Below are positions 41,306-62,706 of a DNA stretch of 64,000 nt, piece by piece. The DNA lies in NCBI GenBank assembly GCA_016219225.1, contig JACRBX010000047.1:3846-67845 (forward strand), read 5' to 3'. Numbering within the stretch: the first letter of the stretch is position 1; every line of letters begins with the position of its first letter. Position numbers and translations under genes: made by a program. The DNA is from Deltaproteobacteria bacterium (GTDB lineage: Bacteria > Desulfobacterota > RBG-13-43-22). The notes under the pieces are model-generated. The model did not search any database. It was not told the origin of the DNA and was given only the letters and a program-made list of their open reading frames with translations.

Positions 41306-41544
41306 CATGCCCGCACGAACACCACGAAACATGAAAATGCGAATATCGAATATCGAATATCGAATCATGAATATCGAAGGAGAGTTTCCTTTTAATTCCG
41401 AAATCCGAAATCTAAAATCCGAAATCGGAATATATTTTCGTACTAAGCCCCCATGCCTGTTTTGTAGGCCACGAACAATGAAAATGGGTTTCGCCGAACG
41501 CCGAACGCTTAACGCCGAACGTTTTTTTCGTACTAACTCCCATG
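41306..41544. repeat. Tandemly duplicated ~100-150-nt leader unit with three different embedded 7-mer arrays (ATCGAAT, TCCGAAA, GCCGAAC); the hdrL ATG lies inside the unit's terminal motif
   Basis: Each unit runs catgccYg ... cacgaaNcaNtgaaaatgNg ... 7-mer array ... tttcgtactaaScccatg; the second unit ends with the hdrL start codon. Confidence 0.6.
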
Positions 41545-44500
41545 AATCAAACCGTAGACCATAAAATTGGAGCCGTATTAATTGCCGGGGCCGGTATATC
41601 CGGCATGCAATCGGCCCTGGATCTGGCCAATGCGGGCTTTAAGGTCTATCTGGTAGAGAAGAACATCAGCATTGGCGGGGTTATGGCCCAGTTGGACAAG
41701 ACCTTTCCGACCAACGACTGTTCCACTTGTATGATTTCCCCTAAATTGATCGAAGTAGCCGGTAACCCCAATATCGAAATTATAACCCGGACCCGGATAA
41801 AAGGGATCGAGGGAGAACCGGGGAATTTTACCGTTGCTTTATATCGGGAACCCCGATTGATCAAGGAAGAGGCCTGCACCGGATGCGGAGAATGTATTAA
41901 GGCCTGTCCCGTCGAAGTCCCGGCCGATTTTAATCTTGGGCTCAACCGCCGGAAGGCCATTTACCGACATTTTCCACAAGCCGTACCTTCGGCCTTTGCC
42001 ATCGACCGGCGGGGTACCTCTCCCTGCAAGGCCGCCTGCCCGGCTCACATCAGCGTCCAGGGCTATGTGGCCCTGATTGCCCAGGGAAAGTTTGCCGAAG
42101 CCCTGAATCTCATTCGGCAGGAAAACCCCCTGCCTTTTGTCTGCGGTTATGTTTGTACCCATCCCTGCGAAGAAGCCTGTTTGCGACAAGAGGTGGATGC
42201 CTCGGTAGCCATCCGGGACCTCAAGCGCTTTGTGGCCGATTATGAGAGAAATCAAGAACCGGTAAGGCTTCCCCTGGTGGAAGGGAAAAAGCCCCGGAAG
42301 ATAGCCGTTGTTGGCTCCGGGCCGGCCGGGCTGACCTGCGCCTATTATCTAACTTTACAGGGATATTCCGTAGAGGTTTTTGAGGCCTTGCCCGTGGCCG
42401 GGGGCATGTTGACCGTCGGGATTCCCACCTACCGCTTGCCCAAAGAGGTGGTGGCAAGGGAAATTAAGGCCATTGAAGGCCTGGGGGTCCGAATTCATTT
42501 GAATGCACCAATTGGGCCTGATCATACTCTGGCAGATCTCAAAGAGAAGGGATTTGAGGCCGTTTTTATCGGTGTCGGGGCCCATCAAGGGATTCGTTTA
42601 GGGCTTGAAGGGGAAGACCTGGAAGGTGTGGTGGCCGGAGTGGATTTCCTCAGGCGGACAGCCCTGGGTCAACAGAAATCGTTGGGGAAAAAGATAGCCG
42701 TCATAGGCGGCGGCAATGTGGCCATCGATTCCGTACGGACCGCCCTGAGGATGGGGGCCGAAGAGGCCATGGTCCTTTACCGGCGGACCCGGGAGGAAAT
42801 GCCGGCCTACGAAGAAGAAATTGAAGAGGCCCTTGAGGAAGGGGTGTCCATCCATTACCTGACCGCCCCGATGAAATTTATTGGAGATGAAGGGGGCAAG
42901 CTTAAAGCCATTGAATGTCTTAAAATGGAGTTGGGTGATCCGGATGCCTCGGGCCGACGGAGACCGGTACCCATCGAAGGTTCCCTTTTTACGATTCCCG
43001 TAGACGGGGTGATTACGGCCGTCAGCCAACAACCAGAGATGGAAAAGCTGAAGCTTCCAGCAGGCGTTAAGGTTTCTCCCTTTGGGACCCTGGAGGTCGA
43101 TCCGGTTACCTTTCAGACCGACCTTCCCTGGGTTTTTGCCGGTGGAGATGCGGTTTCCGGGCCAAAGACGGTTATCGAGGCCATAGCCGCAGGCAAGGAA
43201 GCGGCTCTTTCCATTGATCGTTTTTTACAAGGGAAGGATCTGGCCGCGGACCGGGAGAAAATTTTCGAACCGGCCCGGCCGGATATTCAGGGTATAGCCA
43301 AATCCCCTCGTTGTAAACCCCGGCGAACCGATCCCAACAGACGCCGGACCCGATTTGAAGAAGTGGTCCAGGTCATGACCGAAGAGGAAGCCCGGACGGA
43401 AGCGGCCCGCTGTCTGGCCTGCGGAATCTGTTCCGAGTGCTATCAATGCCTCGAGGCCTGCAAGCCCGGGGCTATCGATCATGCCATGAAAGGAGAGGAT
43501 ATTTCTCTTCAGGTGGGGGCGGTTATTTTATCTCCCGGGTTTGAAATCTTTGATGCCCGTCTTAAAGGAGAATACGGTTACGGCCGATATCCCAATGTCT
43601 TGACCAGTTTGGAATTCGAACGCCTCCTTTCGGCCTCCGGTCCCTTTATGGGTCATATCCAGCGGCCTTCAGACGCTCAGGAACCCCGGAGGGTGGCCTG
43701 GATCCAGTGTGTCGGCTCCAGGGATGCCTCCATCAACCAGGATTACTGTTCCTATGTCTGCTGTATGGTTGCTACCAAGCAGGCCGTTATTGCCAAAGAA
43801 CATTTGCCTTCTCTGGAACCGACGATTTTTTTTATCGACCTGAGGGCCCAAGGCAAAGGCTTTGACCGTTATTATGAACGGGCCAGGCATGAGCATGGGG
43901 TCCGCTATGTGCGCAGTATGATTTCCCGGGTGGTGGAGCATCCCAAGACCCACGATTTAATCATCTCCTATATTGATGAGAACAATGCTTTCCAGAATGA
44001 GGAATTCGACCTGGTAATCCTTTCGGTAGGCCTCAAGCCCCATTCCGAATCCCGGCAGCTCGCCCGGATATTAGATATCCGGACCGATCGCTTTGGTTTC
44101 AGCCAGGCGCCGCCTTTTAATGCGCTGGGAACTTCTCAACCGGGAATTTTTGCCAGCGGTGTCTTTCAAAACCCCAAGGATATTCCGGAGACGGTAACCC
44201 AGGCCAGCGGTGCAGCCGGGGAAGCGGCCGCCTTGCTCTCGGGGGCCCGGGGCACGAAGATCAGGGAATTGGTCTTTCCGGAAGAACGGACGGTGGCCGG
44301 GGAAGAACCGAAGATCGGGGTGCTGATCTGCCATTGCGGCATCAATATCGCCGGGGTGGTGGATGTGGATCAGGTGACGGAATATGCCAAAACCCTGCCC
44401 CAGGTTGTTTATGCCGATCACTTCCTTTTTACCTGTTCGACGGACAGCCAGGAACGGATGCAGCAAATCATAAAAGAACAGGGCTTGAACCGGGTTATCG

Positions 44501-45963
44501 TGGCCTCCTGTTCCCCCCGGACCCACGAAGGTTTATTTCAAGATACGCTGCGCAAGGCCGGACTGAATAAATACCTCTTTGAGATGGCCAATATCCGTGA
44601 CCAATGCTCCTGGGTCCATCAGAGCGAACCGGGGCTGGCCACGGAAAAGGCCAAGGATCTGGTGCGCATGGCCGTGGCCCGGGCCGGGCGTTTGGAATCC
44701 CTTTATGACCGTCCGCTCGATGTAATCCAAAAGGGCCTGGTCCTAGGCGGGGGTGTGGCCGGGATGACGGCGGCCCTCAACCTGGCCGAACAGGGATTCG
44801 AGACCTGCCTGATCGAACAATCCGATCGGTTGGGTGGCCAGGCTTTGAGACTGCATCAGACCCTGGAAGAAAGGGGTGTGCAGGATTATGTGGGCCGGTT
44901 GATTAAACAGGTAACCGAACATGCCGGGATTCAGGTCTATACCGAAAGCCAGGTCCTGGACATGAAAGGGTCTATCGGCCAATTTACGAGTACTATTGCA
45001 AAAAACGGGGAAAAGGTCTCGATTGACCACGGCGTGGCTATTGTGGCAACCGGGGCCTCGGAGTATCTGCCGAAAGAGTATCTGTTTGGGAAGCATCCCG
45101 GTGTGGTCACCCAACTGGAATTCCAGGACTGGCTTTTTCAGCAACCGGAAAAAATCCAGGGGGCTAAGCAGGTCGTCATGATCCAATGTGTGGGTTCCCG
45201 GGAAGAAGAGCATCCCTACTGCAGTCGGGTTTGTTGTTCCACGGCGGTGGCCAATGCCTTAAGGATCAAGGAAATCAGCCCGAAAACCGAGGTTATTATC
45301 CTGTACCGGGATATGCGGACGTACGGCCGGAAAGAGCTCTATTATAAACAGGCCAGGGAGGCCGGCGTCCGGTTTATCCGCTTTGATTTTGAAGTCAAAC
45401 CCGAAGTCGTGGAAGAAGGAGGCGGCTTGAAGGTCACGGTTATGGACCAAAGCCTTAAAGCCTACCTCATCCTTAGGCCGGATTATCTGGCCCTTTCAGC
45501 GGCCATACGCCCGGCCCCGGAAATTAAAAATCTGGCCACAACGCTGAAACTCCCGCTGGATGCCGATGGTTTTTTCCTGGAGGCTCATATTAAACTGAGA
45601 CCCTTGGACTTTGCCAATGCCGGGATGTTTCTCTGCGGTCTGGGGCACGGCCCTAAATCCCTGGAAGAAAGCATTGTCCAGGCTAAAGGGGCCGCAGCCC
45701 GGTCAGCCACGATCCTGGGCCAGAAACAGATTCAGGTCGGCGGTAAGACGGCTGTGGTGGATGAAGAGTTATGCATCGCTTGTCTGACCTGTGTCCGGGT
45801 GTGTCCTTTTGGGGTTCCCATGATCAATGAACGCCATTTTGCTGAAATGAACCCGGCCGCCTGCCAGGGATGCGGGAACTGCGCCACGGCCTGTCCCCAG
45901 GGGGCCATTCAGGTAGGCCATTCCAAGGACGAACAGTTTATAGCTTTATTGGAGGCGTGTTGA
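41542..45963 (+). CDS. HdrL-type giant flavoprotein: HdrA N-terminus + 2x[4Fe-4S] ferredoxin + GltD/NfnB-like NAD(P)H domain + second HdrA-like module
   Basis: GAGISGMQSALDLA (HdrA FAD site); CxxCxxCxxxCP ferredoxin motifs; KIAVVGSGPAGLTCAYYL...GGMLTVGIPTYRLP (GltD-like); two CVGSRD..CSxVCC Cys clusters; second Rossmann VLGGGVAGMTAAL. Confidence 0.75.
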   Translation: MNQTVDHKIGAVLIAGAGISGMQSALDLANAGFKVYLVEKNISIGGVMAQLDKTFPTNDCSTCMISPKLIEVAGNPNIEIITRTRIKGIEGEPGNFTVALYREPRLIKEEACTGCGECIKACPVEVPADFNLGLNRRKAIYRHFPQAVPSAFAIDRRGTSPCKAACPAHISVQGYVALIAQGKFAEALNLIRQENPLPFVCGYVCTHPCEEACLRQEVDASVAIRDLKRFVADYERNQEPVRLPLVEGKKPRKIAVVGSGPAGLTCAYYLTLQGYSVEVFEALPVAGGMLTVGIPTYRLPKEVVAREIKAIEGLGVRIHLNAPIGPDHTLADLKEKGFEAVFIGVGAHQGIRLGLEGEDLEGVVAGVDFLRRTALGQQKSLGKKIAVIGGGNVAIDSVRTALRMGAEEAMVLYRRTREEMPAYEEEIEEALEEGVSIHYLTAPMKFIGDEGGKLKAIECLKMELGDPDASGRRRPVPIEGSLFTIPVDGVITAVSQQPEMEKLKLPAGVKVSPFGTLEVDPVTFQTDLPWVFAGGDAVSGPKTVIEAIAAGKEAALSIDRFLQGKDLAADREKIFEPARPDIQGIAKSPRCKPRRTDPNRRRTRFEEVVQVMTEEEARTEAARCLACGICSECYQCLEACKPGAIDHAMKGEDISLQVGAVILSPGFEIFDARLKGEYGYGRYPNVLTSLEFERLLSASGPFMGHIQRPSDAQEPRRVAWIQCVGSRDASINQDYCSYVCCMVATKQAVIAKEHLPSLEPTIFFIDLRAQGKGFDRYYERARHEHGVRYVRSMISRVVEHPKTHDLIISYIDENNAFQNEEFDLVILSVGLKPHSESRQLARILDIRTDRFGFSQAPPFNALGTSQPGIFASGVFQNPKDIPETVTQASGAAGEAAALLSGARGTKIRELVFPEERTVAGEEPKIGVLICHCGINIAGVVDVDQVTEYAKTLPQVVYADHFLFTCSTDSQERMQQIIKEQGLNRVIVASCSPRTHEGLFQDTLRKAGLNKYLFEMANIRDQCSWVHQSEPGLATEKAKDLVRMAVARAGRLESLYDRPLDVIQKGLVLGGGVAGMTAALNLAEQGFETCLIEQSDRLGGQALRLHQTLEERGVQDYVGRLIKQVTEHAGIQVYTESQVLDMKGSIGQFTSTIAKNGEKVSIDHGVAIVATGASEYLPKEYLFGKHPGVVTQLEFQDWLFQQPEKIQGAKQVVMIQCVGSREEEHPYCSRVCCSTAVANALRIKEISPKTEVIILYRDMRTYGRKELYYKQAREAGVRFIRFDFEVKPEVVEEGGGLKVTVMDQSLKAYLILRPDYLALSAAIRPAPEIKNLATTLKLPLDADGFFLEAHIKLRPLDFANAGMFLCGLGHGPKSLEESIVQAKGAAARSATILGQKQIQVGGKTAVVDEELCIACLTCVRVCPFGVPMINERHFAEMNPAACQGCGNCATACPQGAIQVGHSKDEQFIALLEAC

Positions 45964-45967
45964 AAGA

Positions 45968-46146
45968 AAGGTGTAAGGTACAAGGTATAAGGTGTAAGGT
46001 AAAACCGTTCGGCGAACATTAAATGTTCAGTGTGCGTCAATCAACCCATTTAAACCTGACATCTTGAACCTGGGCTAACTATTGGGGGAAGGTGTAAGAC
46101 ACACGGTTGGTTTTACCTTGAACCTTGAACCATGTACCTTGCACCG
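45968..46146. repeat. Inverted pair of AAGGTNN 7-mer arrays around a ~100-nt spacer (which contains the palindrome gaacattaaatgttc)
   Basis: aaggtgtaaggtacaaggtataaggtgtaaggtaaaacc ... ggttttaccttgaaccttgaaccatgtaccttgcacc. Confidence 0.7.
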
Positions 46147-46156
46147 TTAATTTATT

Positions 46157-46573
46157 ATGTTTGAATCATTCGAACCTAAAATCATTGCCATGGTCTGTAC
46201 CTATTGTACCTATACGGCGGCTGATATGGCCGGGTCCATGAGATTGCAATATCCCTGGAATGTGCGGATTGTCAAATATCTTTGTACCGGCAAGATCGAT
46301 ATTCAGCACATCTTGAAAGTCTTTGAAAAAGGGGCTGATGCCATCCTGGTCGGCGGCTGAGAAATCGGCGACTGCCATTTCCTGGAAGGAAATCTAAGAG
46401 CCAAAGAACGAGTGGAATATGCTAAAGAACTGTTGAAAGAAATCGGTCTGGAACCCGGGCGACTCGAGATGTTCCACATCGGGGCCTCCGATGCTCCGGC
46501 CTGGGCCAAAGCCGTGACGGAGATGACCAACAGGGCCAGGGATCTGGGGGCGAACCCACTTAAAAGATATTAG
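46157..46573 (+). CDS. mvhD: MvhD-like [2Fe-2S] hydrogenase delta-subunit homolog, selenocysteine-containing (in-frame UGA at 46358-46360)
   Basis: The ORF stops at TGA in GADAILVGG-TGA-EIGDCHF, exactly where MvhD has the conserved Cys of G-C-x-x-GDCHY; translation continues in frame for 70 more codons with the conserved MvhD C-terminus (GNLRAKERVEYAKELLKEIGLEPGRLE) to TAG 46571-46573; hairpin atttcc-tggaa-ggaaat at 46377-46393. Confidence 0.7.
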
Positions 46574-46627
46574 ACAGGATTAACAGGATCCTATTAGATA
46601 ATATTTTTCATAGGTAAAGGATTTTGA

Positions 46628-47311
46628 ATGATCATTGCCAGTCGTAAACCTTTTGAAGAAATCAAAAAGAGTTTAACGCCTTATCAAAATATTCTGGTTG
46701 TGGGTTGCGGGACCTGTGTGGCCGTTTGTCTGGCCGGGGGGAAAAAAGAGGTCGGTCTCTTAGCCAGCCAGCTCAAGATGAGTTTTGGAATAGACCAGAA
46801 AAAGGTGCATATAACGGAAGAAACCCTGGAACGTCAATGTGATCGGGAATTCCTGGAGATGATTCGGGACAAAGTCAAAGACACCGATTGTCTACTTTCT
46901 TTGGCCTGCGGTGCCGGAGTCCAGTTTTTGGCCGAAACCTACTCTGAAAAGGCGGTTTTCCCAGGGGTAAATACAACCTTTATCGGCGTGGCCGAGGCGG
47001 CAGGATTATGGACCGAGCGCTGTCGGGCCTGCGGTGACTGCCTGCTGGCCGTGACCGGCGGGATCTGTCCCCGAACCACCTGCACCAAGGGGCTTAATAA
47101 CGGTCCCTGCGGAGGCATGATCGAGGGAAAATGTGAAGTGGACCCTGAGCGGTCATGTGCCTGGGTTTCCATCTATGATCGGCTGGCCAGGGAAGGACGG
47201 CTCACCCAGATCGAATCCATGCGCCCTCCCGCTGACTTTCGCCGCCGGACCAAACCCGGAAAGGTCCATCATCCGGCTTATCTGAGGAGGTATCATGCCG
47301 GGTCCAAATAA
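46628..47311 (+). CDS. metV: methylene-THF reductase-associated zinc-ribbon/FeS protein (MetV-like)
   Basis: Cys-rich (CGTCVAVC, CRACGDC, CPRTTCTKGLNNGPCGG); directly upstream of and overlapping metF. Confidence 0.65.
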   Translation: MIIASRKPFEEIKKSLTPYQNILVVGCGTCVAVCLAGGKKEVGLLASQLKMSFGIDQKKVHITEETLERQCDREFLEMIRDKVKDTDCLLSLACGAGVQFLAETYSEKAVFPGVNTTFIGVAEAAGLWTERCRACGDCLLAVTGGICPRTTCTKGLNNGPCGGMIEGKCEVDPERSCAWVSIYDRLAREGRLTQIESMRPPADFRRRTKPGKVHHPAYLRRYHAGSK

Positions 47312-48176
47312 GTTTGCCGAAGGATTACGATCCGGGACTTTTATGGTGACCTGCGAGTTGGATCCGCCGAAGGGAACCGATCCAACAAAAGCAAAAAAGA
47401 TAATGGATCTCCTTAAAGACAAGGTACAGGCCGTAGTGGTTTCCGATAATCCGCAGGCCCGAATGCACATGGCCCCCATCGGATTTTGCCGTTATCTCCT
47501 GGATCAGGGCATCGAACCGGTCATGACCATCACCTGCCGGGACCGTAATCGCCTGGCCTTGCAATCCGATCTTTTGGCGGCCGTGGGGCTCGGCATTCAA
47601 AATATATTAGCCGTAACCGGTGATTATATCACCTGGGGCGACCACCCGGAAACCAAACCGGTTTATGATCTGGATTCCGTTCAGTTGATCCGGGCCATTT
47701 CCCTGCTGAATGAAAATAAGAACCTTTCCGGGAATGGGGTTGAAGGGCCATCCCCTTCATTCACCATCGGCGCCGCGGTGACGCTGGCCGGCAACCCGAT
47801 CCTGCCTCAGGTTTTGAAGTTTAGGAAAAAGGTGCAGGCCGGGGCCCATTTTTTTATGAGTCATCCGATTTTTGATCTGGCCGGTGTAGAGGAATTCTTT
47901 AAAGAGAAGAGACCTGACCGGAAAACCCCTTTACTGGCCTCGGTTTGTTTGTTAAATGAGACCCGGATGCGGGAATATGCCCCCGGCAAATACCCCGGTC
48001 TATATATTCCCGAGACTGTTATGAAAAAATTTCGGACCTTAAGTTCGGGAGAATTTCAGGCCGGGATGATGTCCCACACGGTCAGGCTGATTGAAGAGAT
48101 AAAAAAAGACGGCCGCTTCCAGGGGGTCCATTTGATGCTTAACGGCGATGAAGAGCGGATTGTGGAGCTCATTTAA
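47295..48176 (+). CDS. metF: methylenetetrahydrofolate reductase
   Basis: TCELDPPKG N-terminal motif and overall MetF pattern; GGAGG Shine-Dalgarno. Confidence 0.8.
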   Translation: MPGPNKFAEGLRSGTFMVTCELDPPKGTDPTKAKKIMDLLKDKVQAVVVSDNPQARMHMAPIGFCRYLLDQGIEPVMTITCRDRNRLALQSDLLAAVGLGIQNILAVTGDYITWGDHPETKPVYDLDSVQLIRAISLLNENKNLSGNGVEGPSPSFTIGAAVTLAGNPILPQVLKFRKKVQAGAHFFMSHPIFDLAGVEEFFKEKRPDRKTPLLASVCLLNETRMREYAPGKYPGLYIPETVMKKFRTLSSGEFQAGMMSHTVRLIEEIKKDGRFQGVHLMLNGDEERIVELI

Positions 48177-48210
48177 GTTCGGAGTTTTGAGTTCGGAGTT
48201 CGGAGTGAGG
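48177..48210. repeat. GTTCGGA 7-mer array just downstream of metF
   Basis: gttcggagttttgagttcggagttcggagtgagg. Confidence 0.65.
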
Positions 48211-48241
48211 ACTTTGAAATGCAGAAGGAAATAATTACAAG

Positions 48242-49288
48242 GTGAATCCCACTAATTCCAAAGTACTCATCCTCGGCGGCGGCATTGCCGGCCTAACGGC
48301 TGCCCTGGCCCTTGGCCGTTTGAATATACCAGTGGAACTGATCGAAAAATCAGAGGCCCTGGGAGGAATGGCCCGGAATTTTTGTTGTAAGGCCACAGAA
48401 GCCTGCCAGCAATGCGGTGCCTGTCTTATAAATGATGCCCTGGCGGCCTTGACTAAAGAACCCTTTATTGAGATTCATTTGCAAACCGAGTTAACCGCAT
48501 TAAAGATGGAAGCCAAGGAATTTCTCTATACTTATAGCCGCCCTGGGGGGGGCGGCGAGGGAAGGGCCCAGGCCCTTCTCCTGGCAACCGGTTTTACCCC
48601 CTTCAGGGCTGAAGACAAACCCCAGTATCGGTATAAAACCTTGCCCAATGTCCTGACCGGGTTAGATCTGGAAAGACAACTTAAAGACACCGGGAACATC
48701 GTCAGACCATCCGATCGGACCATCCCCCAGTCCATAGCCTTTATTCAATGTGTCGGCAGCAGAGACCTTCATTCAGGACATCCCTATTGTTCTCAGGTTT
48801 GCTGCGGTTATGCCCTGCGCCTGGCCAACCTGATCAAGCATAAGAATCCGGAGATGGCCGTCACTGTTTTTTATATGGACATCCAGACCTTCGGCCAGAA
48901 TTTCCCCCTCTTTATGGAACAAAGCCGAAAGCAAATAACTTTTGTCCGTTCCATTCCCGGCGAAATACAAAAGGGGGAGAACGATCAGGCCGTCTTAACC
49001 TTCCAGAAGGAGACCGGGGCCGGCAGTCAAAAACAAGCCTTTGATCTGGCCGTGCTCTCCATCGGCATCAGACCCGGGCCGGACCATTTGTTTTTAGCGC
49101 AACGATTGGGAATTTCACTAACGCCCGATGGTTTCCTGAGTAAAGACGAAGGGTCTTCCTTCCGGCCGGAAGGGATTTTTTTTGCCGGCACTGTTCAAGG
49201 GCCTAAAGGCATCGAGCGAAGCATTTCCCAGGCCTATCAGGCCGCCGAAGAAGTGGCCGATTATTTGAAAACGAGGTCGAACCAGTGA
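48242..49288 (+). CDS. short HdrA-like FAD-dependent oxidoreductase (lacks the ferredoxin insert)
   Basis: LILGGGIAGLTAA Rossmann motif; FIQCVGSRDLHSGHPYCSQVCC cluster; HdrA C-terminal motif FFAGTVQGPKGIERSISQA. Confidence 0.7.
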   Translation: MNPTNSKVLILGGGIAGLTAALALGRLNIPVELIEKSEALGGMARNFCCKATEACQQCGACLINDALAALTKEPFIEIHLQTELTALKMEAKEFLYTYSRPGGGGEGRAQALLLATGFTPFRAEDKPQYRYKTLPNVLTGLDLERQLKDTGNIVRPSDRTIPQSIAFIQCVGSRDLHSGHPYCSQVCCGYALRLANLIKHKNPEMAVTVFYMDIQTFGQNFPLFMEQSRKQITFVRSIPGEIQKGENDQAVLTFQKETGAGSQKQAFDLAVLSIGIRPGPDHLFLAQRLGISLTPDGFLSKDEGSSFRPEGIFFAGTVQGPKGIERSISQAYQAAEEVADYLKTRSNQ

Positions 49289-50943
49289 TTCCCCTGGAAG
49301 AATTTAAAAAGATTCCCAGGGTGCTCATCCTGGGGAAGGGACTGACGGCCCAGGAAACGGCCGCACAACTGATTTCCTTAGGCTATGAGGTACTGTCGGT
49401 CGATCCCGATGACCAAAGGCCATTGCTGCGGATCGAAGGTTTTGCCGGGGACTTCCAGGTGCAATTTAAATCCGGACAAAAGCAATGGACTGAGGCTGTA
49501 GGCGCCATTGTTTTTGCTCCTGAGTTGGTTGCTGAACCCAAACCAGATGTCTATTCCTTGACCGCTTCCGATCAAATCATAGGTATTGATGGCCTGGTTG
49601 AACTTCTTTCCCCCTCACCTTCACCCCATGGAATGGAAGAATTGGTTCCAGCGGGCCAGTCTCCTTCGGCCTATCCGGCCTTCAGTTCTTCTTCTTATAT
49701 TGCCTTCCTGGTTGGGTTACAGGACGAAGGAAACGTGGCCGAAATGGCCAGGATCTTTTGGCTGGCCTTAAAGATTCGAAAGGAATATCAATCACAAGTT
49801 TATATCTTTTGCCGTCATATCAAGGTGGCCGAAGAGGGGATGGAGAGGCTCTACCAGACTTGCCGGGACGAAGGGGTGATTTTTTTCAAGTTTGATGGGG
49901 CAGGGCCGGAAATGGTCAGGATTGGAGAATCGATCGGCTTGGAATTTGAAGATGCCGTGTTAGGACAGCCTTTTGAATTAAAGCCCGATCTTCTGGTTAT
50001 TGAACCCCTCCAGGTGCTGCCCCGGGAAATCCGGGAATTGGCTGTTTCCGCTCAAATCGGGATGGATGGAATGGGTTTCCTTCAGCCGGCCAATGTTCAC
50101 CTGCTGCCCCAGGCCTCAAAGCGGGAGGGGATATTTATCGCCGGTCCGGGAAAAGGCCCCATGGTCCCTCAAGCCTGTTTGGAAGAAGCCCGGGCCGCGG
50201 CGTTGTCGATCCATCATTTTTTTGAAGGCCGGATTTCAGACCAGATGGACCGGGAGGTTACGGTTGATAAGGGGCTTTGCACCATCTGTCTAACCTGTCT
50301 CCGCTACTGTCCCCATCAGGCCATAGGCTTTACCCACCGGGTTTTTATCCACCCTCTGGCCTGCCGGCGTTGCGGCATCTGTGCCAGTGAATGCCCCATG
50401 GATGCTATACAAATCGCCGGTTTTTCCGATCAGGAGGTGGAGCTGAAATTAGCGGCCCTCCAGGAAAGATGGGAGCAAATGGAAACCGGTCTGGTCAGGA
50501 TGGTTATTTTCGGTTGTCAGCGGTCGGCCGGGAGGGCCTGGGAGGAAGCTCAAAGCTCAAAGCTCAAAGTTCAAAGCGACAACGAAGAGGTGCAAGGTAC
50601 AAGGTATAAGATACAAGGTGAAATCGAATTTATTGCACTGCCCTGTGCCGGAAAGCTGGACCCCGATTATATACTGAAAGCCTTGAGTATGGGGGCCGAT
50701 GGGGTGCTGGTTCTGGCCTGTCCGGAAGAAAATTGTAAATCCTTACACGGGAATACTTACGCCCGGGAGCGTATCCAGGAGGCCCGGCATTATGTGGAAG
50801 AGGCGGGCCTCAATCCGGAAAAGATCCGTTTTAACAATTTATCGAGCAACATGGTTTGGTATTTAAAGGAAATTATCGGGGAATTTATGGATGAACTAAG
50901 CGAATCCAAAATTCCGCAATCCGCAATCCGCAATCCGAAATAG
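49285..50943 (+). CDS. fusion protein: degenerate HdrA-like domain + 2x[4Fe-4S] ferredoxin + MvhD-like domain, with an internal repeat-encoded insertion and repeat-encoded C-terminal tail
   Basis: CTICLTCLRYCP / CRRCGICASECP motifs; MvhD motifs VIFGCQRSAG ... IALPCAGKLD ... GADGVLVLACPEENC; 7-mer arrays at 50546-50616 and 50896-50943 lie in frame. Confidence 0.65.
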   Translation: MIPLEEFKKIPRVLILGKGLTAQETAAQLISLGYEVLSVDPDDQRPLLRIEGFAGDFQVQFKSGQKQWTEAVGAIVFAPELVAEPKPDVYSLTASDQIIGIDGLVELLSPSPSPHGMEELVPAGQSPSAYPAFSSSSYIAFLVGLQDEGNVAEMARIFWLALKIRKEYQSQVYIFCRHIKVAEEGMERLYQTCRDEGVIFFKFDGAGPEMVRIGESIGLEFEDAVLGQPFELKPDLLVIEPLQVLPREIRELAVSAQIGMDGMGFLQPANVHLLPQASKREGIFIAGPGKGPMVPQACLEEARAAALSIHHFFEGRISDQMDREVTVDKGLCTICLTCLRYCPHQAIGFTHRVFIHPLACRRCGICASECPMDAIQIAGFSDQEVELKLAALQERWEQMETGLVRMVIFGCQRSAGRAWEEAQSSKLKVQSDNEEVQGTRYKIQGEIEFIALPCAGKLDPDYILKALSMGADGVLVLACPEENCKSLHGNTYARERIQEARHYVEEAGLNPEKIRFNNLSSNMVWYLKEIIGEFMDELSESKIPQSAIRNPK

Positions 50944-50947
50944 AACG

Positions 50948-51415
50948 ATGGATCGTATTGACCTGAAAAAATTAGACCCCGATTTTAAGCACCGGTTAGC
51001 CCGGGAATTGGGGGGGGAACACATCAAAAAATGTTTTTCCTGCGGGGTCTGCTCGGCCCGCTGCCCCGTAGAAAAAATCGAGCCGGAGTATAACCCGAGA
51101 AAGATCATCCGTATGATCTTGTTAGGCATGGAAGAGGCCTTGCTCAAAGAAGAATTCCTCTGGCACTGTTCGACCTGTTATACCTGTCAGGAATCCTGCC
51201 CCCAGAAGGTTAATTTTACGGAAGTCATCTTCGCCTTGCGCAACCTGGCCGTCCGCAAAGGCCTGGCCCCGCCCGGTATGGGAGCGGCCCGGAATTTACT
51301 CAGTCAGCAGGGTCGGATGTATGAGGTGGGGGATTTTGAAAATGAGAAACGTCAGGAACTGGGGCTGCCGAAGATAATGGGAAACCCGGAGGAATATAAG
51401 AAGCTCTTAGGATAA
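50948..51415 (+). CDS. hdrC: heterodisulfide reductase subunit C-like (2x[4Fe-4S])
   Basis: CFSCGVCSARCPV and CSTCYTCQESCPQKV motifs. Confidence 0.8.
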   Translation: MDRIDLKKLDPDFKHRLARELGGEHIKKCFSCGVCSARCPVEKIEPEYNPRKIIRMILLGMEEALLKEEFLWHCSTCYTCQESCPQKVNFTEVIFALRNLAVRKGLAPPGMGAARNLLSQQGRMYEVGDFENEKRQELGLPKIMGNPEEYKKLLG

Positions 51416-51510
51416 TAATCGAAGTGGTAACGGTTTATTAAAATATCACAGCCGGGGGCGGCTGTGCTACATAAGACTGTGCCCCAAAAGATGGTTGAAT
51501 AAAAACAGGG

Positions 51511-52407
51511 ATGTTTAAATCTGATATGAAATATGCATTCTTTTTAGGCTGTACGGTCCCGGTCCGGAATCTGAATTACGAGCTATCCGCCCGCCTGGTG
51601 GCCCGGAAATTGGGGATGGAGTTGGTCGATCTGGAAGCGTTCCAGTGTTGCGGCTTTCCTCTGAAATCGATCAATTTTTTTGAATCGTTGGTGATTGCTG
51701 CCGCCAATCTGGCCCTGGCCGAGCAGGCCGCTTTGCCGGTCTGCACCTTATGCAGTGCCTGCGGGGGCTCCTTAAGCGAAGCCGATCACCTGCTCAGACA
51801 CAACAGCCCGTTAAAAGAACAGGTTAATGACCGCCTGAAGGTATTGGGTCTGGAATACCAAGGGACCGGGGAAGTCAAACATTTCATCCGCATCCTCTAT
51901 GAGGATCTGGGGCTTGAAAAGATAAAAGAGAAGATCGTACGGCCTTTGACCGGTTTTAGCTTTGCCCCCCATTACGGGTGTCATTATTTCAAACCGGCCG
52001 AGACCGCCGGCGGGATTGACCCGGTGGAAACCCCCCAATCCTTAAGCCGGTTGATCGAGGCAACCGGGGCCGAGGCCCTGGCCTACGAAACCTTGCTTAA
52101 CTGCTGTGGCGGGAGTATTTTAGGGGCCAAGGAAGATCTGGCCAATACCCTGGCCGGGCAGAAGCTGGCGGAGGTGAACCGTTTAGGGGCCACTGGTTTG
52201 GTCTTGATCTGCCCCTTTTGTAATGTCATGTTTGAAGGCCAGCAGAAAAAAATAGAGAAGAAACTGGAACAAAAATTGAAAGTGCCGGTCCTTTACTATC
52301 CCCAGCTTTTAGGGTTGGCCCTGGGGGCCGGGCCGGATGAACTCGGATTTAAGTTGAATCGAATCAAAGACAAGGAATTCTTAAAATATTTTGACAAGGA
52401 GGTCTGA
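51511..52407 (+). CDS. hdrB: heterodisulfide reductase subunit B-like (CCG domains)
   Basis: KYAFFLGCTVP N-terminus; CCG motifs (FQCCGFP, LNCCGGS); true start may be the internal ATG at 51526. Confidence 0.8.
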   Translation: MFKSDMKYAFFLGCTVPVRNLNYELSARLVARKLGMELVDLEAFQCCGFPLKSINFFESLVIAAANLALAEQAALPVCTLCSACGGSLSEADHLLRHNSPLKEQVNDRLKVLGLEYQGTGEVKHFIRILYEDLGLEKIKEKIVRPLTGFSFAPHYGCHYFKPAETAGGIDPVETPQSLSRLIEATGAEALAYETLLNCCGGSILGAKEDLANTLAGQKLAEVNRLGATGLVLICPFCNVMFEGQQKKIEKKLEQKLKVPVLYYPQLLGLALGAGPDELGFKLNRIKDKEFLKYFDKEV

Positions 52408-52843: not shown

Positions 52844-52926
52844 CAGGCGCAAGGCGCAGGGCACAAGGCGTAAGGTAAAAAAAGAAGAAGATTTTCCTTG
52901 AACCTTGCGCCTTGTGCCTTGCGCCC
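52844..52926. repeat. Inverted pair of AAGGCGN 7-mer arrays (hairpin-forming)
   Basis: caggcgcaaggcgcagggcacaaggcgtaaggtaaaaa ... ttttccttgaaccttgcgccttgtgccttgcgcc. Confidence 0.7.
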
Positions 52927-52945
52927 GCGATAAAGGAGTGCTGTC

Positions 52946-55528
52946 ATGGGATACATTGAAGAGTTAAAGGCCATCGTTGGTGAGGATAATGTCCATACCG
53001 GGAAAATTGATTGTTTCAGTGTCTCCAGGGATCTGTCGGTTCACGAGGGGTTTCCGGAAGCCATCGTTTTCGCCCGTACGACCGAAGAGGTGGTCGGTGT
53101 AGTGCGAATAGCCGGGGCACACAAAATTCCGGTGACGCCCCGGGGGGCCGGGACCAGTGTGACCGGCGCGTCCCTGGCCTCTAAGGGCGGTATCCTGCTG
53201 GACCTTTCCCGGATGAACAAGATCAAAGAGCTCAATAAAAATGACCGGTATGTGATTGTCGAACCGGGGATCGTCTGCAACGCCCTGAATGCCCAATTGG
53301 AACCCACCCACTTTTTCCCTCCCGATCCGGGCAGCGCACCAATCTGCACGGTCGGAGGGATGATCGCCTGTAACGCCAGCGGGGTGCGGGCCGTCAAGTA
53401 CGGGACCACCCGGGACTACGTCATGGGGTTGGAGGTGGTGCTGGCTGACGGCCGGGTTATTCATACCGGCTCCCTGGCGCCGAAGACCGCCGCCGGTTAT
53501 GACCTGACCCATCTGTTCGCCTCTTCCGAGGGGACCCTGGGCATCATCACCGCGGCCACTTTGAAAATCCTGGCCAAGCCGCCTTATATCGCCTTTGCCA
53601 AGGCCACCTTCCCCTCTGTGAAGGCGGCCGGTGATGCCGTGGAAAAGATGCTGACCTCGGGGATCCGCCCGTCTTCCTGCGAAATCCTGGACGACATGTC
53701 GATCGAGGTGGTCAAACAGGCCATGAATCTCGAGTTTGCTCCTGAAGTTAAATGTATTCTGTTCATTGAAATCGACGGCCACAAATTAGAGGTTCAGGAT
53801 TACATTACCCGGATCGACGTCATCTGCCAGGAGGCGGGAGGGCTGGGAAATGAATGGTCCGATGATCCGGCCAAGCGGCTGGTTATGTGGTCCGCCCGAC
53901 AGGGTTTGACGCCCTCCCTGTCGCGGATCAAGCCCGGCTACAGGCTCATGCCTATCGTGGAGGATTTCGGCGTGCCCATCAGCCAGATCCCGGCCACGAT
54001 CGCCGCCATCCAGGAGGTGGGCCGGAAAAATAATATCCCTGTGGCCACCTTCGGTCATATCGGCGACGGTAATCTGCATGCCGTTATCATTATCGATGTG
54101 CGGAAGCAAGAGGAGTGGGAGACCATGCGAAAGGTCGCCCAGGGTTTTGTGGACCTTACCCTGAAATTCAATGGCACTCTGACCGCTGAGCACGGTCTGG
54201 GAATGGCCAAATCGCCTTATATTAAGACCGAGCTGGGCAACAGCCTGGAGGTCATGGAAGGGATCAAGCAGACCCTGGATCCGGGAAATATCCTCAATCC
54301 GGGTAAAATGGGTTTTCAGGACAGTATCCTGGATATCTTCGACCAGTTCGCCTTCGCCCACCTGGTGGAGCACCCGGAAGACCGGCAGAGCTTCGGTGAA
54401 AAAATCGATAATGAGATCCTGGCCTGTATCCAGTGCGGATTCTGCCGGGGCGGCTGTCCAACTTACGGCCAGACCGGCCTCGAATCCATGAATGCCCGGG
54501 GCCGGGTACTGATGGCCTTTAGTCTGATGAGCGGCCGACTGCAACCCTCGGAAGAAATGGCCACCCGTCTTTTTCAATGCACGAACTGCTTGAACTGCAA
54601 GTTCACCTGTCCTTCCAGAGTGGAAGTGGCCGATATCGTCCAGGCGGCCCGTAAACGGTTGGTGGACAGCGGACTTCTTCCGCCGGTATTTCAGAGCAGC
54701 GGGAAGAGCATCGCCCAGTACGGCAACCCCTTCGGGGAGCCCAGGGAGAAAAGGACCGATGTCTTCCCGGCTGGCTTTATACCGGCCCAAAAAGGCGCCG
54801 AGGTCCTGCTCTTCGGCAGCTGTGTGGGGTCTTACCAGGATATCAACCTGATCCCCAATTTGATGACCATCCTGGATAAGGCCGGCATCTCCTATTCGGC
54901 CCTGGGACAGGAAGAAGACTGTTGCGGTTATTTGAGCTACCTGGTGGGGGCCGAGGAAGATTTCAGGAAATGTGTTCAGGCCAATACTCAAAAGTTTGCC
55001 GACCTGGGGGTCAAGGAGATCGTCACCAGTTGTCCTGGCTGTTTCCGGACCCTGTCCAAGCTTTATCCGGCTTACGGCGGGGCAGGGGATATCAAGGTCC
55101 ACCATGTGGTCACTTATCTGAAAGAACTGATGGGCCAGGGGAAGATCCCTTTGAAGGAGAGCAGCCCCATGGTCGTGGCTTATCATGATCCCTGCGATCT
55201 TGGGCGTCACATGCAGGTCTTTGAAGAGCCCCGGGATATCTTAAAACAAATCCCCGGCGTACAACTCAATGAATTTAAGATGAATCGCCTCTTAGCCAAG
55301 TGCTGCGGCAGCGGGGGTGGGGTTAAGGGTTTTGACAACCCCCTTAGTCAGGAGATTGCCTACCAGCGGGTCCTCCAGGCATTGGAAGTCGGTGCTGAGG
55401 TGATCGTTTCCGCCTGCCCCTCCTGCAAGAGCAATTTGACCCAGGGGGCGGCCCGTCTGCGGAAAGAGAAGAAGGGAAAAATCAAAGTTAAGGACATCAC
55501 CGAGGTCATTGCCAATGCCTTGGCCTAA
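52946..55528 (+). CDS. FAD-linked oxidase (GlcD-like) fused to a 4Fe-4S/CCG (GlpC/HdrD-like) domain; D-lactate/2-hydroxyacid dehydrogenase-like
   Basis: FAD-binding PCMH region (RGAGTSVTG); C-terminal CxxCxxC ferredoxin motifs and two CCG motifs (CCGYLS, KCCGSGG). Confidence 0.75.
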   Translation: MGYIEELKAIVGEDNVHTGKIDCFSVSRDLSVHEGFPEAIVFARTTEEVVGVVRIAGAHKIPVTPRGAGTSVTGASLASKGGILLDLSRMNKIKELNKNDRYVIVEPGIVCNALNAQLEPTHFFPPDPGSAPICTVGGMIACNASGVRAVKYGTTRDYVMGLEVVLADGRVIHTGSLAPKTAAGYDLTHLFASSEGTLGIITAATLKILAKPPYIAFAKATFPSVKAAGDAVEKMLTSGIRPSSCEILDDMSIEVVKQAMNLEFAPEVKCILFIEIDGHKLEVQDYITRIDVICQEAGGLGNEWSDDPAKRLVMWSARQGLTPSLSRIKPGYRLMPIVEDFGVPISQIPATIAAIQEVGRKNNIPVATFGHIGDGNLHAVIIIDVRKQEEWETMRKVAQGFVDLTLKFNGTLTAEHGLGMAKSPYIKTELGNSLEVMEGIKQTLDPGNILNPGKMGFQDSILDIFDQFAFAHLVEHPEDRQSFGEKIDNEILACIQCGFCRGGCPTYGQTGLESMNARGRVLMAFSLMSGRLQPSEEMATRLFQCTNCLNCKFTCPSRVEVADIVQAARKRLVDSGLLPPVFQSSGKSIAQYGNPFGEPREKRTDVFPAGFIPAQKGAEVLLFGSCVGSYQDINLIPNLMTILDKAGISYSALGQEEDCCGYLSYLVGAEEDFRKCVQANTQKFADLGVKEIVTSCPGCFRTLSKLYPAYGGAGDIKVHHVVTYLKELMGQGKIPLKESSPMVVAYHDPCDLGRHMQVFEEPRDILKQIPGVQLNEFKMNRLLAKCCGSGGGVKGFDNPLSQEIAYQRVLQALEVGAEVIVSACPSCKSNLTQGAARLRKEKKGKIKVKDITEVIANALA

Positions 55529-56825: not shown

Positions 56826-56908
56826 AAGGTACAAGGCGTAAGGCTCAAGGTAAAAACGGGGAAATTAAAAGGTCTAACCCTTGTGCCTTGTGCCCTGCGC
56901 CTTGCGCC
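56826..56908. repeat. Inverted pair of AAGGNNN 7-mer arrays
   Basis: aaggtacaaggcgtaaggctcaaggtaaaaac ... cccttgtgccttgtgccctgcgccttgcgcc. Confidence 0.7.
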
Positions 56909-60580: not shown

Positions 60581-60820
60581 ATGGGAAAGTATTCTTTTGA
60601 GATTTTTTCGGAAAGATGCACCGCCTGTCTTCGCTGCCGGTTGGCCTGTTCCGAGCTTTATACCAAGGCCTTTAATCCTTCCCGGTCCAGGATACGGGTT
60701 GACCTATCCGGAACGGGGTGCACCATTTCGTTCGCCGATGACTGTGAGGGATGCGGGGTTTGTGCGGATCACTGTTATTACGGAGCCATTGAAAAGATCC
60801 GGAAGGAGGTGGCCCCATGA
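60581..60820 (+). CDS. small 4Fe-4S ferredoxin-like protein
   Basis: CTACLRCRLAC and CEGCGVCADHC motifs; ATGA overlap with the downstream AOR. Confidence 0.65.
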   Translation: MGKYSFEIFSERCTACLRCRLACSELYTKAFNPSRSRIRVDLSGTGCTISFADDCEGCGVCADHCYYGAIEKIRKEVAP

Positions 60821-62706
60821 CCAGGGACCGAGGAGGCTTTGCCGGAAAGATCCTGCATGTAGACCTGACCCGGGAAATCATCCATCAGGAACCTTTGGAT
60901 TGGGGCCTGGCCGAGAAGTTCGTCGGCGGTCTGGGTTTAACCATCAAGCTGGCCTATGACAAAATCCAGCCTCGATCAGAGGCCCTTTCCCCCCAAAATC
61001 CCATCCTCCTGGGGGCCGGCCCCCTGGTGGGAACCAATCTTCCATCCGCCTCACGGGTCTACGGGGTCACAAAACTGCCGGCCAGCGGCACCATCGGCTG
61101 GTGTGGCGCGGGCGGGGTGACCTTCGGATACCAGCTCAAGAACGCCGGCTTTGACCACATCATCATAGAAGGCCGGGCGGATAGACCGGTATATCTGAGC
61201 ATCATCGATGAAAACATAGAAATCCGTGATGCCCGCCACCTTTGGGGAAAGGACGTGGAGGAGACCTGTGAAAGCCTCTGGAAAGAGATGCCCTGGCCCG
61301 CCGGGATCCTCAGCATCGGTCAGGCCGGGGAGGCCCTGATCCCCTTTTCCATGGCCTATGTCAACCGCCTGTCCACCTTGGGGCGGGGCGGTTTCGGCGC
61401 CGTCATGGGTTCCAAGAACCTTAAGGCCGTCGTGGTTCAAGGTACGGGCGAGGTAAGGGTGGCCCATAGGAAGGAGTACCAGGGACTTCTAAGGGATTTT
61501 TTAAAATCCATCCGTGAATATCCCTATCTTAAGGAATGGCAAGACCTGGGGTTGATCAAGGCCTTTCCCTTTATTCCCCCGGAAGTCTACCAGAAAATCA
61601 AAGAAAGACGGGTGGCCTGCGTATCCTGCCCAACCGGCTGTAAAGACATCATCAGGATCCAGGATGGGGAGCATCAGGGATTTCTGGCCCATTCCAGCTC
61701 GGCGATCAACCTTTTGACTCCCATGAATTATGGATTCAAGGATTACCGGGAGGCCATCAAGTGCACCGCCACACTGGATCGGTACGGCCTGGACATGTTC
61801 GAATTTTTCGGCCTTATGACCATGGCGCAGGCCCTTGGCGAACAAGGGGTCATCCCTCCTGAAAGCCTGCCGGTCCCGATCCGAACCGGCTCGTTGAATT
61901 CCATGGAAACCTGGGCCGCATTGATTGTTCGAAGGGAAGGCCTGGGTGAAATCCTGGCCGAAGGCTTCAAGGGCCTTCTAAATGCCTTTGGCCAGGATGC
62001 CAGGGCCTGTGCCCCGGCCCTGGTTAAGGGCATGCATCCCTACGCCGGACCGGGGGCTGCCTTGCCCTGGGACCTCTTCGGCACCATGGAGTTGGGTCAG
62101 GTATTGGACCCCCGGGGTCCTCACGTAGGGGCCGGCGGCTCACCGACCTATTTTGCCAAAAGACCCCTGGAGGTCTTTCCCAAGCACCTTACACGCATGG
62201 GGGTCCCTAAAGAAGCCATGGAAAGGATTCTCCCAAGCAAAGGATCGGGAGATTCGGTTAAGGAGATCAAGGTGGGACGGCTTCTTAAATATTCCCACGC
62301 CTGGTTCAGTATCCTGGGTGCCCTCGGCATCTGCGCCAGGGGCCAAATCAACCGTTTTTACAATGCCCCCTTGTGCGCCCGGTTTTATGAAGCGGTCACC
62401 GGCATCGAAACCGATCCGGAGGCCCTTCGGAGAAGAGTGGACCGTTCCTGGACCTTGCTTCGTATGGCCAATGTGCGGGAGGGATTTGGGAGAGATTATG
62501 ATGCCCTGCCCGAACAATGGTTCAAAACACCGGGCTTTAAGGATTATTGCTCCGAACAGCCCTTGACCATTGAAGAAGCAGGGGCCATGATCGAGGATTA
62601 CTATGATGAGCAGGGCTGGGATAGAACAACAGGGATTCCCACCCGGGCCAGGCTCGAAGAATTGGACATTAGGGAATGTTTCGCCTTAGCCCCCGCCGCT
62701 TCTTAG
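60817..62706 (+). CDS. aldehyde:ferredoxin oxidoreductase family protein (tungsten/molybdopterin AOR)
   Basis: N-terminal AOR_N pattern (GGFAGKILHVDLT...), ~630 aa, preceded by a ferredoxin gene. Confidence 0.75.
   Translation: MTRDRGGFAGKILHVDLTREIIHQEPLDWGLAEKFVGGLGLTIKLAYDKIQPRSEALSPQNPILLGAGPLVGTNLPSASRVYGVTKLPASGTIGWCGAGGVTFGYQLKNAGFDHIIIEGRADRPVYLSIIDENIEIRDARHLWGKDVEETCESLWKEMPWPAGILSIGQAGEALIPFSMAYVNRLSTLGRGGFGAVMGSKNLKAVVVQGTGEVRVAHRKEYQGLLRDFLKSIREYPYLKEWQDLGLIKAFPFIPPEVYQKIKERRVACVSCPTGCKDIIRIQDGEHQGFLAHSSSAINLLTPMNYGFKDYREAIKCTATLDRYGLDMFEFFGLMTMAQALGEQGVIPPESLPVPIRTGSLNSMETWAALIVRREGLGEILAEGFKGLLNAFGQDARACAPALVKGMHPYAGPGAALPWDLFGTMELGQVLDPRGPHVGAGGSPTYFAKRPLEVFPKHLTRMGVPKEAMERILPSKGSGDSVKEIKVGRLLKYSHAWFSILGALGICARGQINRFYNAPLCARFYEAVTGIETDPEALRRRVDRSWTLLRMANVREGFGRDYDALPEQWFKTPGFKDYCSEQPLTIEEAGAMIEDYYDEQGWDRTTGIPTRARLEELDIRECFALAPAAS

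Follow-up and report, generated by a model that had tools for sequence, protein, structure and literature searches.

We analysed a stretch of 64,000 nucleotides from a sulfate-reducer-like Deltaproteobacteria bacterium (contig JACRBX010000047.1; hereafter the window), which carries a cluster of hdr, met and mvhD genes (Table 1). Our subject is mvhD, a forward-strand gene that is interrupted by an in-frame TGA. The gene starts with an ATG at 46157, reaches the TGA at 46358-46360 and continues in the same single frame through 70 further open codons to a TAG at 46571-46573. Local translation gives GADAILVGG, a stop and EIGDCHFLEGN, and the peptide spanning the UGA can be written GADAILVGG-X-EIGDCHFLEGNLR. 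A hairpin, ATTTCC-TGGAA-GGAAAT (46377-46393), lies downstream, with 16 nt separating the UGA from the stem. From comparative evidence we conclude, with a probability of roughly 90%, that positions 46157-46573 hold one mvhD gene whose codon 68, a UGA, is decoded as selenocysteine (Sec).

Table 1. Features of the mvhD region of the window. ORF, open reading frame; SECIS, selenocysteine insertion sequence; bSECIS, bacterial SECIS; THF, tetrahydrofolate.
Feature	Position	Strand	Basis
hdrL, an NfnB/GltD-like NAD(P)H-binding half fused to an HdrA-like half (1473 aa)	41542-45963	+	Pfam and NCBIfam domains
mvhD (FlpD/MvhD family, 138 aa including predicted Sec68)	46157-46573	+	PF02662 end to end; Cys-type homologues; 7bkb_F
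Predicted Sec-encoding UGA, residue 68	46358-46360	+	invariant-Cys column; TGA at the same codon in 40 of 80 genomes; VhuD X65 aligned
Putative extended SECIS core: 2-bp lower helix, 3x3 internal loop and upper hairpin (lower part provisional)	46372-46398	+	pair retention; codon bias at Arg +13
Putative SECIS upper stem-loop AUUUCC(U)-GGA-(A)GGAAAU, codons of H-F-L-E-G-N	46377-46393	+	frozen synonymous sites; bSECIS fit
metV (DUF5981, small subunit associated with methylene-THF reductase)	46628-47311	+	PF12225, 120.6 bits
metF (methylenetetrahydrofolate reductase)	47295-48176	+	PF02219, 74.8 bits
Second HdrA-like unit, two overlapping ORFs (48242-49288 and 49285-50943)	48242-50943	+	second ORF ends in a Cys-type FlpD/MvhD domain
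hdrC-like	50948-51415	+	TIGR03290, 108 bits, under the equivalog cut-off
hdrB-like	51511-52407	+	TIGR03288, 252 bits, under the equivalog cut-off

Counting Sec68, the read-through product is 138 aa long. It matches the Pfam FlpD profile (PF02662) over positions 1-123 of 123 with 154 bits (cut-off 22.3) and solved MvhD/VhuD chains with E = 2e-41 to 1e-31 (2e-41 for 7bkb_F). Cys-type homologues with 70-78% identity span 96-100% of its length. The MvhD/VhuD/FlpD family has five conserved cysteines in the pattern C-x2-C ... C ... C-x4-C, and C14, C17, C43, U68 and C73 of the window protein align to the conserved Cys of homologues and solved structures, Sec68 being the fourth of the five. In 18 full-length homologues the UGA column is an invariant Cys within the motif G-C-E-x-G-D-C-H-F-L-E-G-N. 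An earlier note on this DNA had proposed that a frame with MvhD hallmarks stops at the TGA just where MvhD carries its conserved Cys, and that the 70 codons beyond it encode the conserved C-terminus. Both proposals hold, coordinates included: aligned with MvhD/VhuD sequences, the UGA falls on the invariant Cys of G-C-x-x-G-D-C-H, and the profile match runs to the end of the domain. Against the NCBIfam VhuD model (NF045873) the read-through protein scored 158 bits, under the 215-bit cut-off, which places it outside VhuD proper, and the window ORFs that were scanned yielded no hydrogenase subunit genes.

The same note had warned that standard ORF calling splits the gene, and this is what we found. 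Mechanical ORF calling cuts mvhD into pieces of 67 and 53 aa, and in a public Logan assembly (1.7-kb contig) it appears as separate genes for 67 and 61 aa, both of which match FlpD. No full-length read-through MvhD of the close relatives turned up in a collection of 5.8 billion proteins, in which the best match has 78% identity.

Such fragments would also be expected if mvhD were a pseudogene, or if the TGA were a sequencing or assembly error, with a 67-aa fragment or nothing as the true product. The shape of the ORF is ordinary in this respect, as 27 TGA codons in the window have at least 50 open codons on either side. Since the ORF shape and the hairpin are each within what chance alone can give, the significance of the site rests on comparison. 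We scanned one genome per bacterial species and obtained 80 mvhD loci, in which the codon in question is TGA in 40 and TGC or TGT in the other 40. Together with the window, whose DNA is approximately 94-95% identical to that of a Thermodesulfobacteriota metagenome-assembled genome (MAG; L001), the TGA loci form an alignment of 41 sequences; the Cys alignment holds 40. Two TGA paralogues occur in each of three MAGs (L001/L014, L009/L015 and L011/L080). Among the 41 TGA sequences, the ratio of nonsynonymous to synonymous divergence per site (pN/pS) is 0.19 for 60 codons 5' of the UGA and 0.26 for 39 codons 3' of it, indicating that purifying selection persists 3' of the UGA. The downstream part, moreover, holds the invariant CHFLEGN and one conserved Cys needed for the cluster. 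As this TGA recurs across 40 independent assemblies from different species, and also in paralogue pairs of single MAGs, we consider a pseudogene or an error extremely unlikely.

It is also conceivable that the locus yields two polypeptides, an N-terminal one of 67 aa ending at the TGA and a C-terminal one re-initiated downstream. A GTG-started ORF (46412-46573) does lie within the 3' part of mvhD, and the public gene call includes the 61-aa downstream piece with its FlpD match. However, the codon of this GTG, +18 relative to the UGA, is start-capable in 18 of the 41 TGA sequences (the rest have GTT, ATA, GTC and others), and no start-capable codon conserved before +37 was found among them. If the gene were split, the invariant motif would be lost: re-initiation discards E-x-G-D-C-H-F-L-E-G-N, yet this segment is under purifying selection, and every Cys homologue is a single chain. 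The earlier note had held that a Sec codon would be refuted by a lack of conservation past the UGA, or by orthologues with a genuine stop and a separately initiated downstream ORF. The post-UGA residues are conserved in the orthologues and none of these has such an ORF. We give hardly any weight to two separate polypeptides and retain a single mvhD gene with a Sec codon.

TGA is the stop codon of 16 of the 53 ordinary ORFs in the window, so the genetic code is standard and not reassigned. We also looked for further TGA/Cys pairs in all TGA-interrupted frames of the window and the 80 loci. The one clean site was that of mvhD, with approximately 90 Cys among approximately 95 aligned homologues at the UGA column; the remaining candidates were off-frame noise.

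The hairpin 3' of the UGA is identical in 41 of 41 TGA sequences, save for an exchange of GAA and GAG (U-A to U-G) and one AAC. Variation in the stem is limited to the pairing-preserving change from U-A to U-G in five sequences, and 99.7% of alignment cells are paired. The hairpin is encoded by the codons of H-F-L-E-G-N, amino acids that are invariant in Sec and Cys forms alike, so only synonymous positions can report selection at the RNA level. These positions differ sharply between the two forms (Table 2). Codon entropy at H-F-L-E-G-N is 0-0.5 bit in the TGA forms and approximately 1 bit in the Cys forms, compared to 0.8-2 bits at the other degenerate codons of the TGA forms. Similarly, synonymous divergence per site (pS) over the six hairpin codons is 0.07 in the TGA forms and 0.78 for the same codons in the Cys forms; the other downstream codons of the TGA forms give 0.72. 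The pattern TGA-N16-ATTTCCTGGARGGAAAY occurs once per TGA locus (41 of 41) and in none of the 40 Cys loci. From these alignments we conclude that the hairpin is under RNA-level selection only where the UGA is present.

Table 2. Codons used for the invariant H-F-L-E-G-N motif in TGA and Cys forms of mvhD.
Codon	TGA sequences (41)	Cys sequences (40)
His	CAT 41	CAT 23 / CAC 17
Phe	TTC 41	TTC 25 / TTT 15
Leu	CTG 41	CTG 29 / TTG 10 / CTC 1
Glu	GAA 36 / GAG 5	GAG 23 / GAA 17
Gly (+10)	GGA 41	GGC 31 / GGG 6 / GGT 3 (GGA 0)
Asn	AAT 40 / AAC 1	AAC 28 / AAT 12

We compared this element, and the fold 3' of the UGA, with the published model of bSECIS elements. The model calls for 3-9 nt in the apical loop, 4-16 bp in the upper stem and 16-37 nt from UGA to loop, with a G at the first or second loop position and a minimum free energy (MFE) of -7.5 kcal/mol or lower; the usual loop is N1-G-[G/U]-N-N2, with N1 and N2 pairing (PMC13188914). 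The window element has a stem of 6-7 bp and a U-GGA-A loop that begins 22-23 nt past the UGA. The hairpin agrees with all published criteria, that of MFE through the extended 63-nt fold (-11.5 kcal/mol). Together with the synonymous constraint seen in TGA orthologues only, this bears out the suggestion of the earlier note that the hairpin is positioned as a bacterial SECIS. Like the bacterial consensus, of which the element of Escherichia coli fdh is the prototype, the window element is a coding-region stem-loop just past the UGA with a G in the apical loop and a distance within 16-37 nt. The E. coli elements have no sequence similarity to it, as is usual (PMC13188914). It differs from the consensus in that the whole upper stem-loop is built of the codons of an invariant protein motif.

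Below the visible hairpin, a short, provisional lower helix would be formed by the pairs C46372-G46398 and U46373-A46397, which are retained in 41 of 41 and 40 of 41 TGA sequences, respectively. The Arg codon at +13 (46397-46399) is AGR in 40 of these 41 sequences, compared to approximately 15% at the other Arg codons of the same genes and 20% in the Cys forms. The adjacent Leu +12 (46394-46396) is CTG in only 2 of 41 TGA genes, though CTG is dominant elsewhere. The codon biases at Arg +13 and Leu +12 indicate that mRNA-level selection extends past the visible hairpin. We also considered an outer GGC/GCC helix (46367-46369 with 46400-46402), which was rejected as its support is no better than codon usage predicts.

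The two forms of mvhD do not fall into two groups of relatives. In a neighbor-joining tree built from the protein, several clades contain TGA forms interleaved with Cys forms, and GGA at the Gly codon always tracks TGA. The association of TGA with GGA is therefore not the product of one inherited event, and the tree suggests several switches between Sec and Cys.

A second difference between the forms was noted at residue 66 (46352-46354). Among loci L001-L080, the Sec type has V-G-G-U and nearly all of the Cys type has V-S-G-C, with V-G-G-C in L057 and L061. This difference, two residues before Sec or Cys, may have arisen at the protein level as an adaptation to Sec, or may reflect an RNA-level constraint, since RNAalifold pairs GGNGG with CUGYC across the UGA.

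We propose that the mRNA hairpin at 46377-46393, with the short lower helix to 46372-46398, would act as a bacterial SECIS. SelB, with GTP and Sec-tRNA(Sec), would bind the G-containing apical loop while the UGA is in the ribosomal A site, and Sec would be inserted at the UGA in place of termination. That decoding at codon 68 depends on SelB and tRNA(Sec) and incorporates selenium is what we infer from the sequence comparisons described above.

Several observations count against the Sec interpretation or its parts. We sought compensatory covariation in the hairpin and found none; the stem is invariant, so that no covariation is available and the argument rests on suppressed synonymous change. 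The 63-nt fold 3' of the UGA is of unremarkable stability (z = -0.67 compared to shuffled sequences), and the 17-nt hairpin by itself reaches only -4.3 kcal/mol. RNAalifold favours a different helix that spans the UGA and is mutually exclusive with the lower helix at 46372-46398. No Rfam family matched anywhere in the window at the gathering score, nor was a SECIS family found in a scan of 46100-46700 at E <= 10; a Yfr20 match in that scan (E = 2.1) was dismissed as chance. It should be noted that bacterial SECIS elements are heterogeneous (PMC13188914), so the Rfam result does not argue against function. The neighbor-joining tree uses only approximately 120 residues, making the number of Sec/Cys switches approximate. 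The role of Sec68 as a cluster ligand, discussed below, is reached by elimination. Finally, none of selA, selB, selD and tRNA-Sec was found in the 64-kb window or in the flanks of the TGA loci. Scans of the 53 window ORFs with NCBIfam and Pfam did not find selA, selB or selD, and ARAGORN reported no tRNA or tRNA-Sec in the window or the 40 TGA loci.

The last result, and the modest stability and missing covariation of the hairpin, would also fit a UGA that is read through without Sec. In that case a near-cognate or suppressor tRNA would supply Cys, Trp or Gly, with the hairpin merely slowing the ribosome or stimulating read-through. However, the UGA takes the place of a Cys, which is the signature of Sec/Cys pairs, and the hairpin, down to its spacing and G-G apical loop, conforms to the SelB-type bSECIS consensus. 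Where cultured relatives carry this type of gene, they also have selA, selB, selC and selD; the aligned residue is Sec in a solved VhuD structure, and TGA serves as a normal stop in the window. Read-through without Sec is thus very unlikely, and we keep to Sec insertion at codon 68.

This phenomenon has already been described. MvhD/VhuD (PF02662) is among the listed prokaryotic selenoprotein families, Deltaproteobacteria included. The statement in the earlier note that Sec-containing MvhD proteins occur in methanogens and some Deltaproteobacteria is correct, examples being VhuD of Methanococcus maripaludis and the MvhD proteins of Desulfobacterium autotrophicum and Desulfococcus multivorans. 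The D. autotrophicum HRM2 genome (2009) has selA, selB, selC and selD, four copies of Sec-mvhD, and HdrL or HdrA genes each followed by mvhD (PMC2702500). As in the window, mvhD there follows either a large HdrL, a fusion of HdrA-like and glutamate-synthase-like parts, or an HdrA gene (PMC2702500), and the 1473-aa HdrL of the window has the same domain make-up as the HRM2 HdrL. The HRM2 HdrL1-MvhD locus continues with dsrABC, compared to metVF in the window (PMC2702500), and the likeness is one of gene family and arrangement. In the D. multivorans genome (2016), mvhD is split by a UGA with a predicted SECIS just 3' of it, and selA, selB and selD are present (PMC5109826). The genes around it there are hdrA2-hdrBC-mvhD2, or hdrA1-mvhD1 together with an oxidoreductase, in place of metVF; the likeness is to the published description (PMC5109826).

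Two further systems bear on the position of Sec68. M. maripaludis VhuD (9sfi/9t1s), a full-length homologue of the window MvhD (E = 9e-38), has two Sec residues. The second, X65 (9sfi_K), aligns exactly with Sec68 of the window, and the first, X14, occupies the CxxU position, where the window has Cys17. VhuD links an electron-input module to HdrA as a [2Fe-2S] adaptor (PMC13518236). It is archaeal, however, and works with a [NiFeSe] hydrogenase or Fdh in place of MetVF; in archaea, SECIS elements are located in the 3' untranslated region, outside the coding region (PMC13188914). The second system is BamF of the class II benzoyl-CoA reductase of Geobacter metallireducens, a bacterial Sec-containing, MvhD-like [2Fe-2S] adaptor on an HdrA-like bifurcating subunit (bioRxiv 10.64898/2026.04.10.717634). 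BamF is more than 100 residues longer than the window MvhD. Its sole Sec, Sec19, is the 'additional' Cys near the cluster, equivalent to Cys17 of the window, and this differs from the Sec68 site. The mvhD of the window is therefore a further, unannotated member of a selenoprotein family that has already been described.

The window MvhD aligns with MvhD of Methanothermobacter marburgensis (9SW2) at an offset of -1, so that Sec68 corresponds to Cys67 and Cys17 to Cys16. The paper on the 9SW2 structure describes Cys16 as an additional conserved Cys outside the cluster ligands, and names His68 and Asp71 as neighbours of an unknown ligand on the HdrA Cys pair. Cys67, the counterpart of Sec68, sits directly before His68. 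As Cys17 is the additional, non-ligand Cys, Sec68 would by elimination be one of the four ligands of the [2Fe-2S] cluster, adjacent to the residues facing the HdrA Cys pair.

This leads to a broader proposal, for which we see the chances as evenly balanced. Sec68 may coordinate the [2Fe-2S] cluster directly through its selenolate, from the C-x-x-G-D-C loop facing the HdrA Cys pair, and not act as an 'extra' redox-active residue like Sec19 of BamF; Sec and its SECIS, encoded wholly within the H-F-L-E-G-N codons, would have been gained or lost several times in Thermodesulfobacteriota. If so, Sec68 would modulate the cluster in a bacterial NADH-dependent MetVF-Hdr complex, and the cluster would be a natural Sec/Cys switch, possibly following selenium availability.

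The genes around mvhD point to its function. The order of the cluster is hdrL, mvhD, metV, metF, a split hdrA, hdrC, hdrB and gcvH. Among loci with sufficient flanking sequence, an HdrL or HdrA gene lies immediately 5' of mvhD in almost all, and metV lies directly 3' in almost all. The order HdrL/HdrA-mvhD-metV-metF-hdrA is kept in nearly all Sec- and Cys-type loci that extend far enough. HdrL is therefore likely to be the partner of MvhD. The same clustered gene set (metF, metV, mvhD, hdrA, hdrB and hdrC; 41542-52407 in the window) makes up MetFV-HdrABC-MvhD of Moorella thermoacetica, to which the window differs by an added HdrL fusion upstream and a second hdrA that is split in two. The literature examined reports no Sec in the Moorella MvhD, which is likened to that of the window by gene set alone.

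We suggest that MvhD would be a small [2Fe-2S] adaptor that docks on HdrA-type flavoproteins and serves the module of HdrL/HdrA-HdrBC and MetVF. This module would be an NADH-dependent, probably electron-bifurcating methylene-THF reductase of the Wood-Ljungdahl pathway. From homology and synteny, it is likely that MvhD passes electrons to or from an HdrA-type flavin in this reductase.

Within HdrL, the NAD(P)H module covers approximately residues 156-660 and is followed by HdrA-like modules and ferredoxin domains. A plain HdrA of normal length replaces HdrL 5' of mvhD in approximately one third of related loci, which indicates that the NADH-input module has been repeatedly fused or lost. We also considered a second Sec codon, in HdrL, as tblastn alignments break near residue 630. 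This was rejected: the break reflects the difference between plain HdrA and the HdrL fusion, and no in-frame TGA is present in the window HdrL. The two ORFs of the second hdrA lie in different frames and overlap at GTGA, and the split is conserved in related loci. The MvhD/FlpD domain at the end of the second ORF keeps Cys (CPEENC) where the free-standing MvhD has its predicted Sec.

While our understanding of selenoprotein biology is unchanged by these data, they have consequences for annotation. In the uncultured Thermodesulfobacteriota lineage of the window and approximately 40 related species, the mvhD of a Wood-Ljungdahl methylene-THF reductase cluster is predicted to encode a selenoprotein. 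As standard gene callers split or drop mvhD, metabolic reconstructions could wrongly score the complex as incomplete. The family also offers a natural experiment, in which half of the orthologues have Sec and half Cys, interleaved, with a 17-nt putative SECIS that is frozen only together with the UGA. This defines a compact SECIS variant that may be useful for finding Sec insertion in these bacteria or for engineering it. Lastly, the analysis indicates a probable Sec-ligated [2Fe-2S] site, which is of interest in the existing VhuD structures.

Three other features of the window were noted. A long inverted repeat made up of tandem (AAGGTRY)n heptamers, at 45967-46148, fills the intergenic region between hdrL and mvhD. 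Its arms (45967-46006 and 46109-46148) are 40 nt each, 83% complementary and separated by a 102-nt spacer, and the RNA fold has -71.7 kcal/mol (z = -5.4). The 3' arm ends 8 nt 5' of the mvhD start, where no Shine-Dalgarno sequence is evident by eye. We counted 14 occurrences of the (AAGGTRY)n pattern in the window, compared to 0.6 expected. These include a second hairpin after gcvH; further sites are at 52845-52927, 56826-56837 and 50587-50619. The closest relatives have the element in the same place (L001 75-107, L002 5864-5889, L003 5875-5984 and L081 194-205). A REP-like (repetitive extragenic palindromic) element, a terminator and translational control are candidate functions for the inverted repeat.

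At 60817-62706, an ORF of 629 aa resembles aldehyde:ferredoxin oxidoreductase (AOR), the NCBIfam AOR match being over the first approximately 230 residues only. Its 5' end is overlapped by a 120-aa ORF in another frame (60597-60959) that ends in TGA. A frameshift, an unusual N-terminus and an annotation artefact are candidate causes of this overlap. Just 3' of the hdr cluster, at 52946-55528, an 860-aa fusion joins a GlcD-like FAD oxidase to an HdrD/GlpC-like Fe-S (CCG) domain. It resembles proteins of the LdhH/TfrB type and has a weak match to the NCBIfam model 'diclust_near_Sec'.

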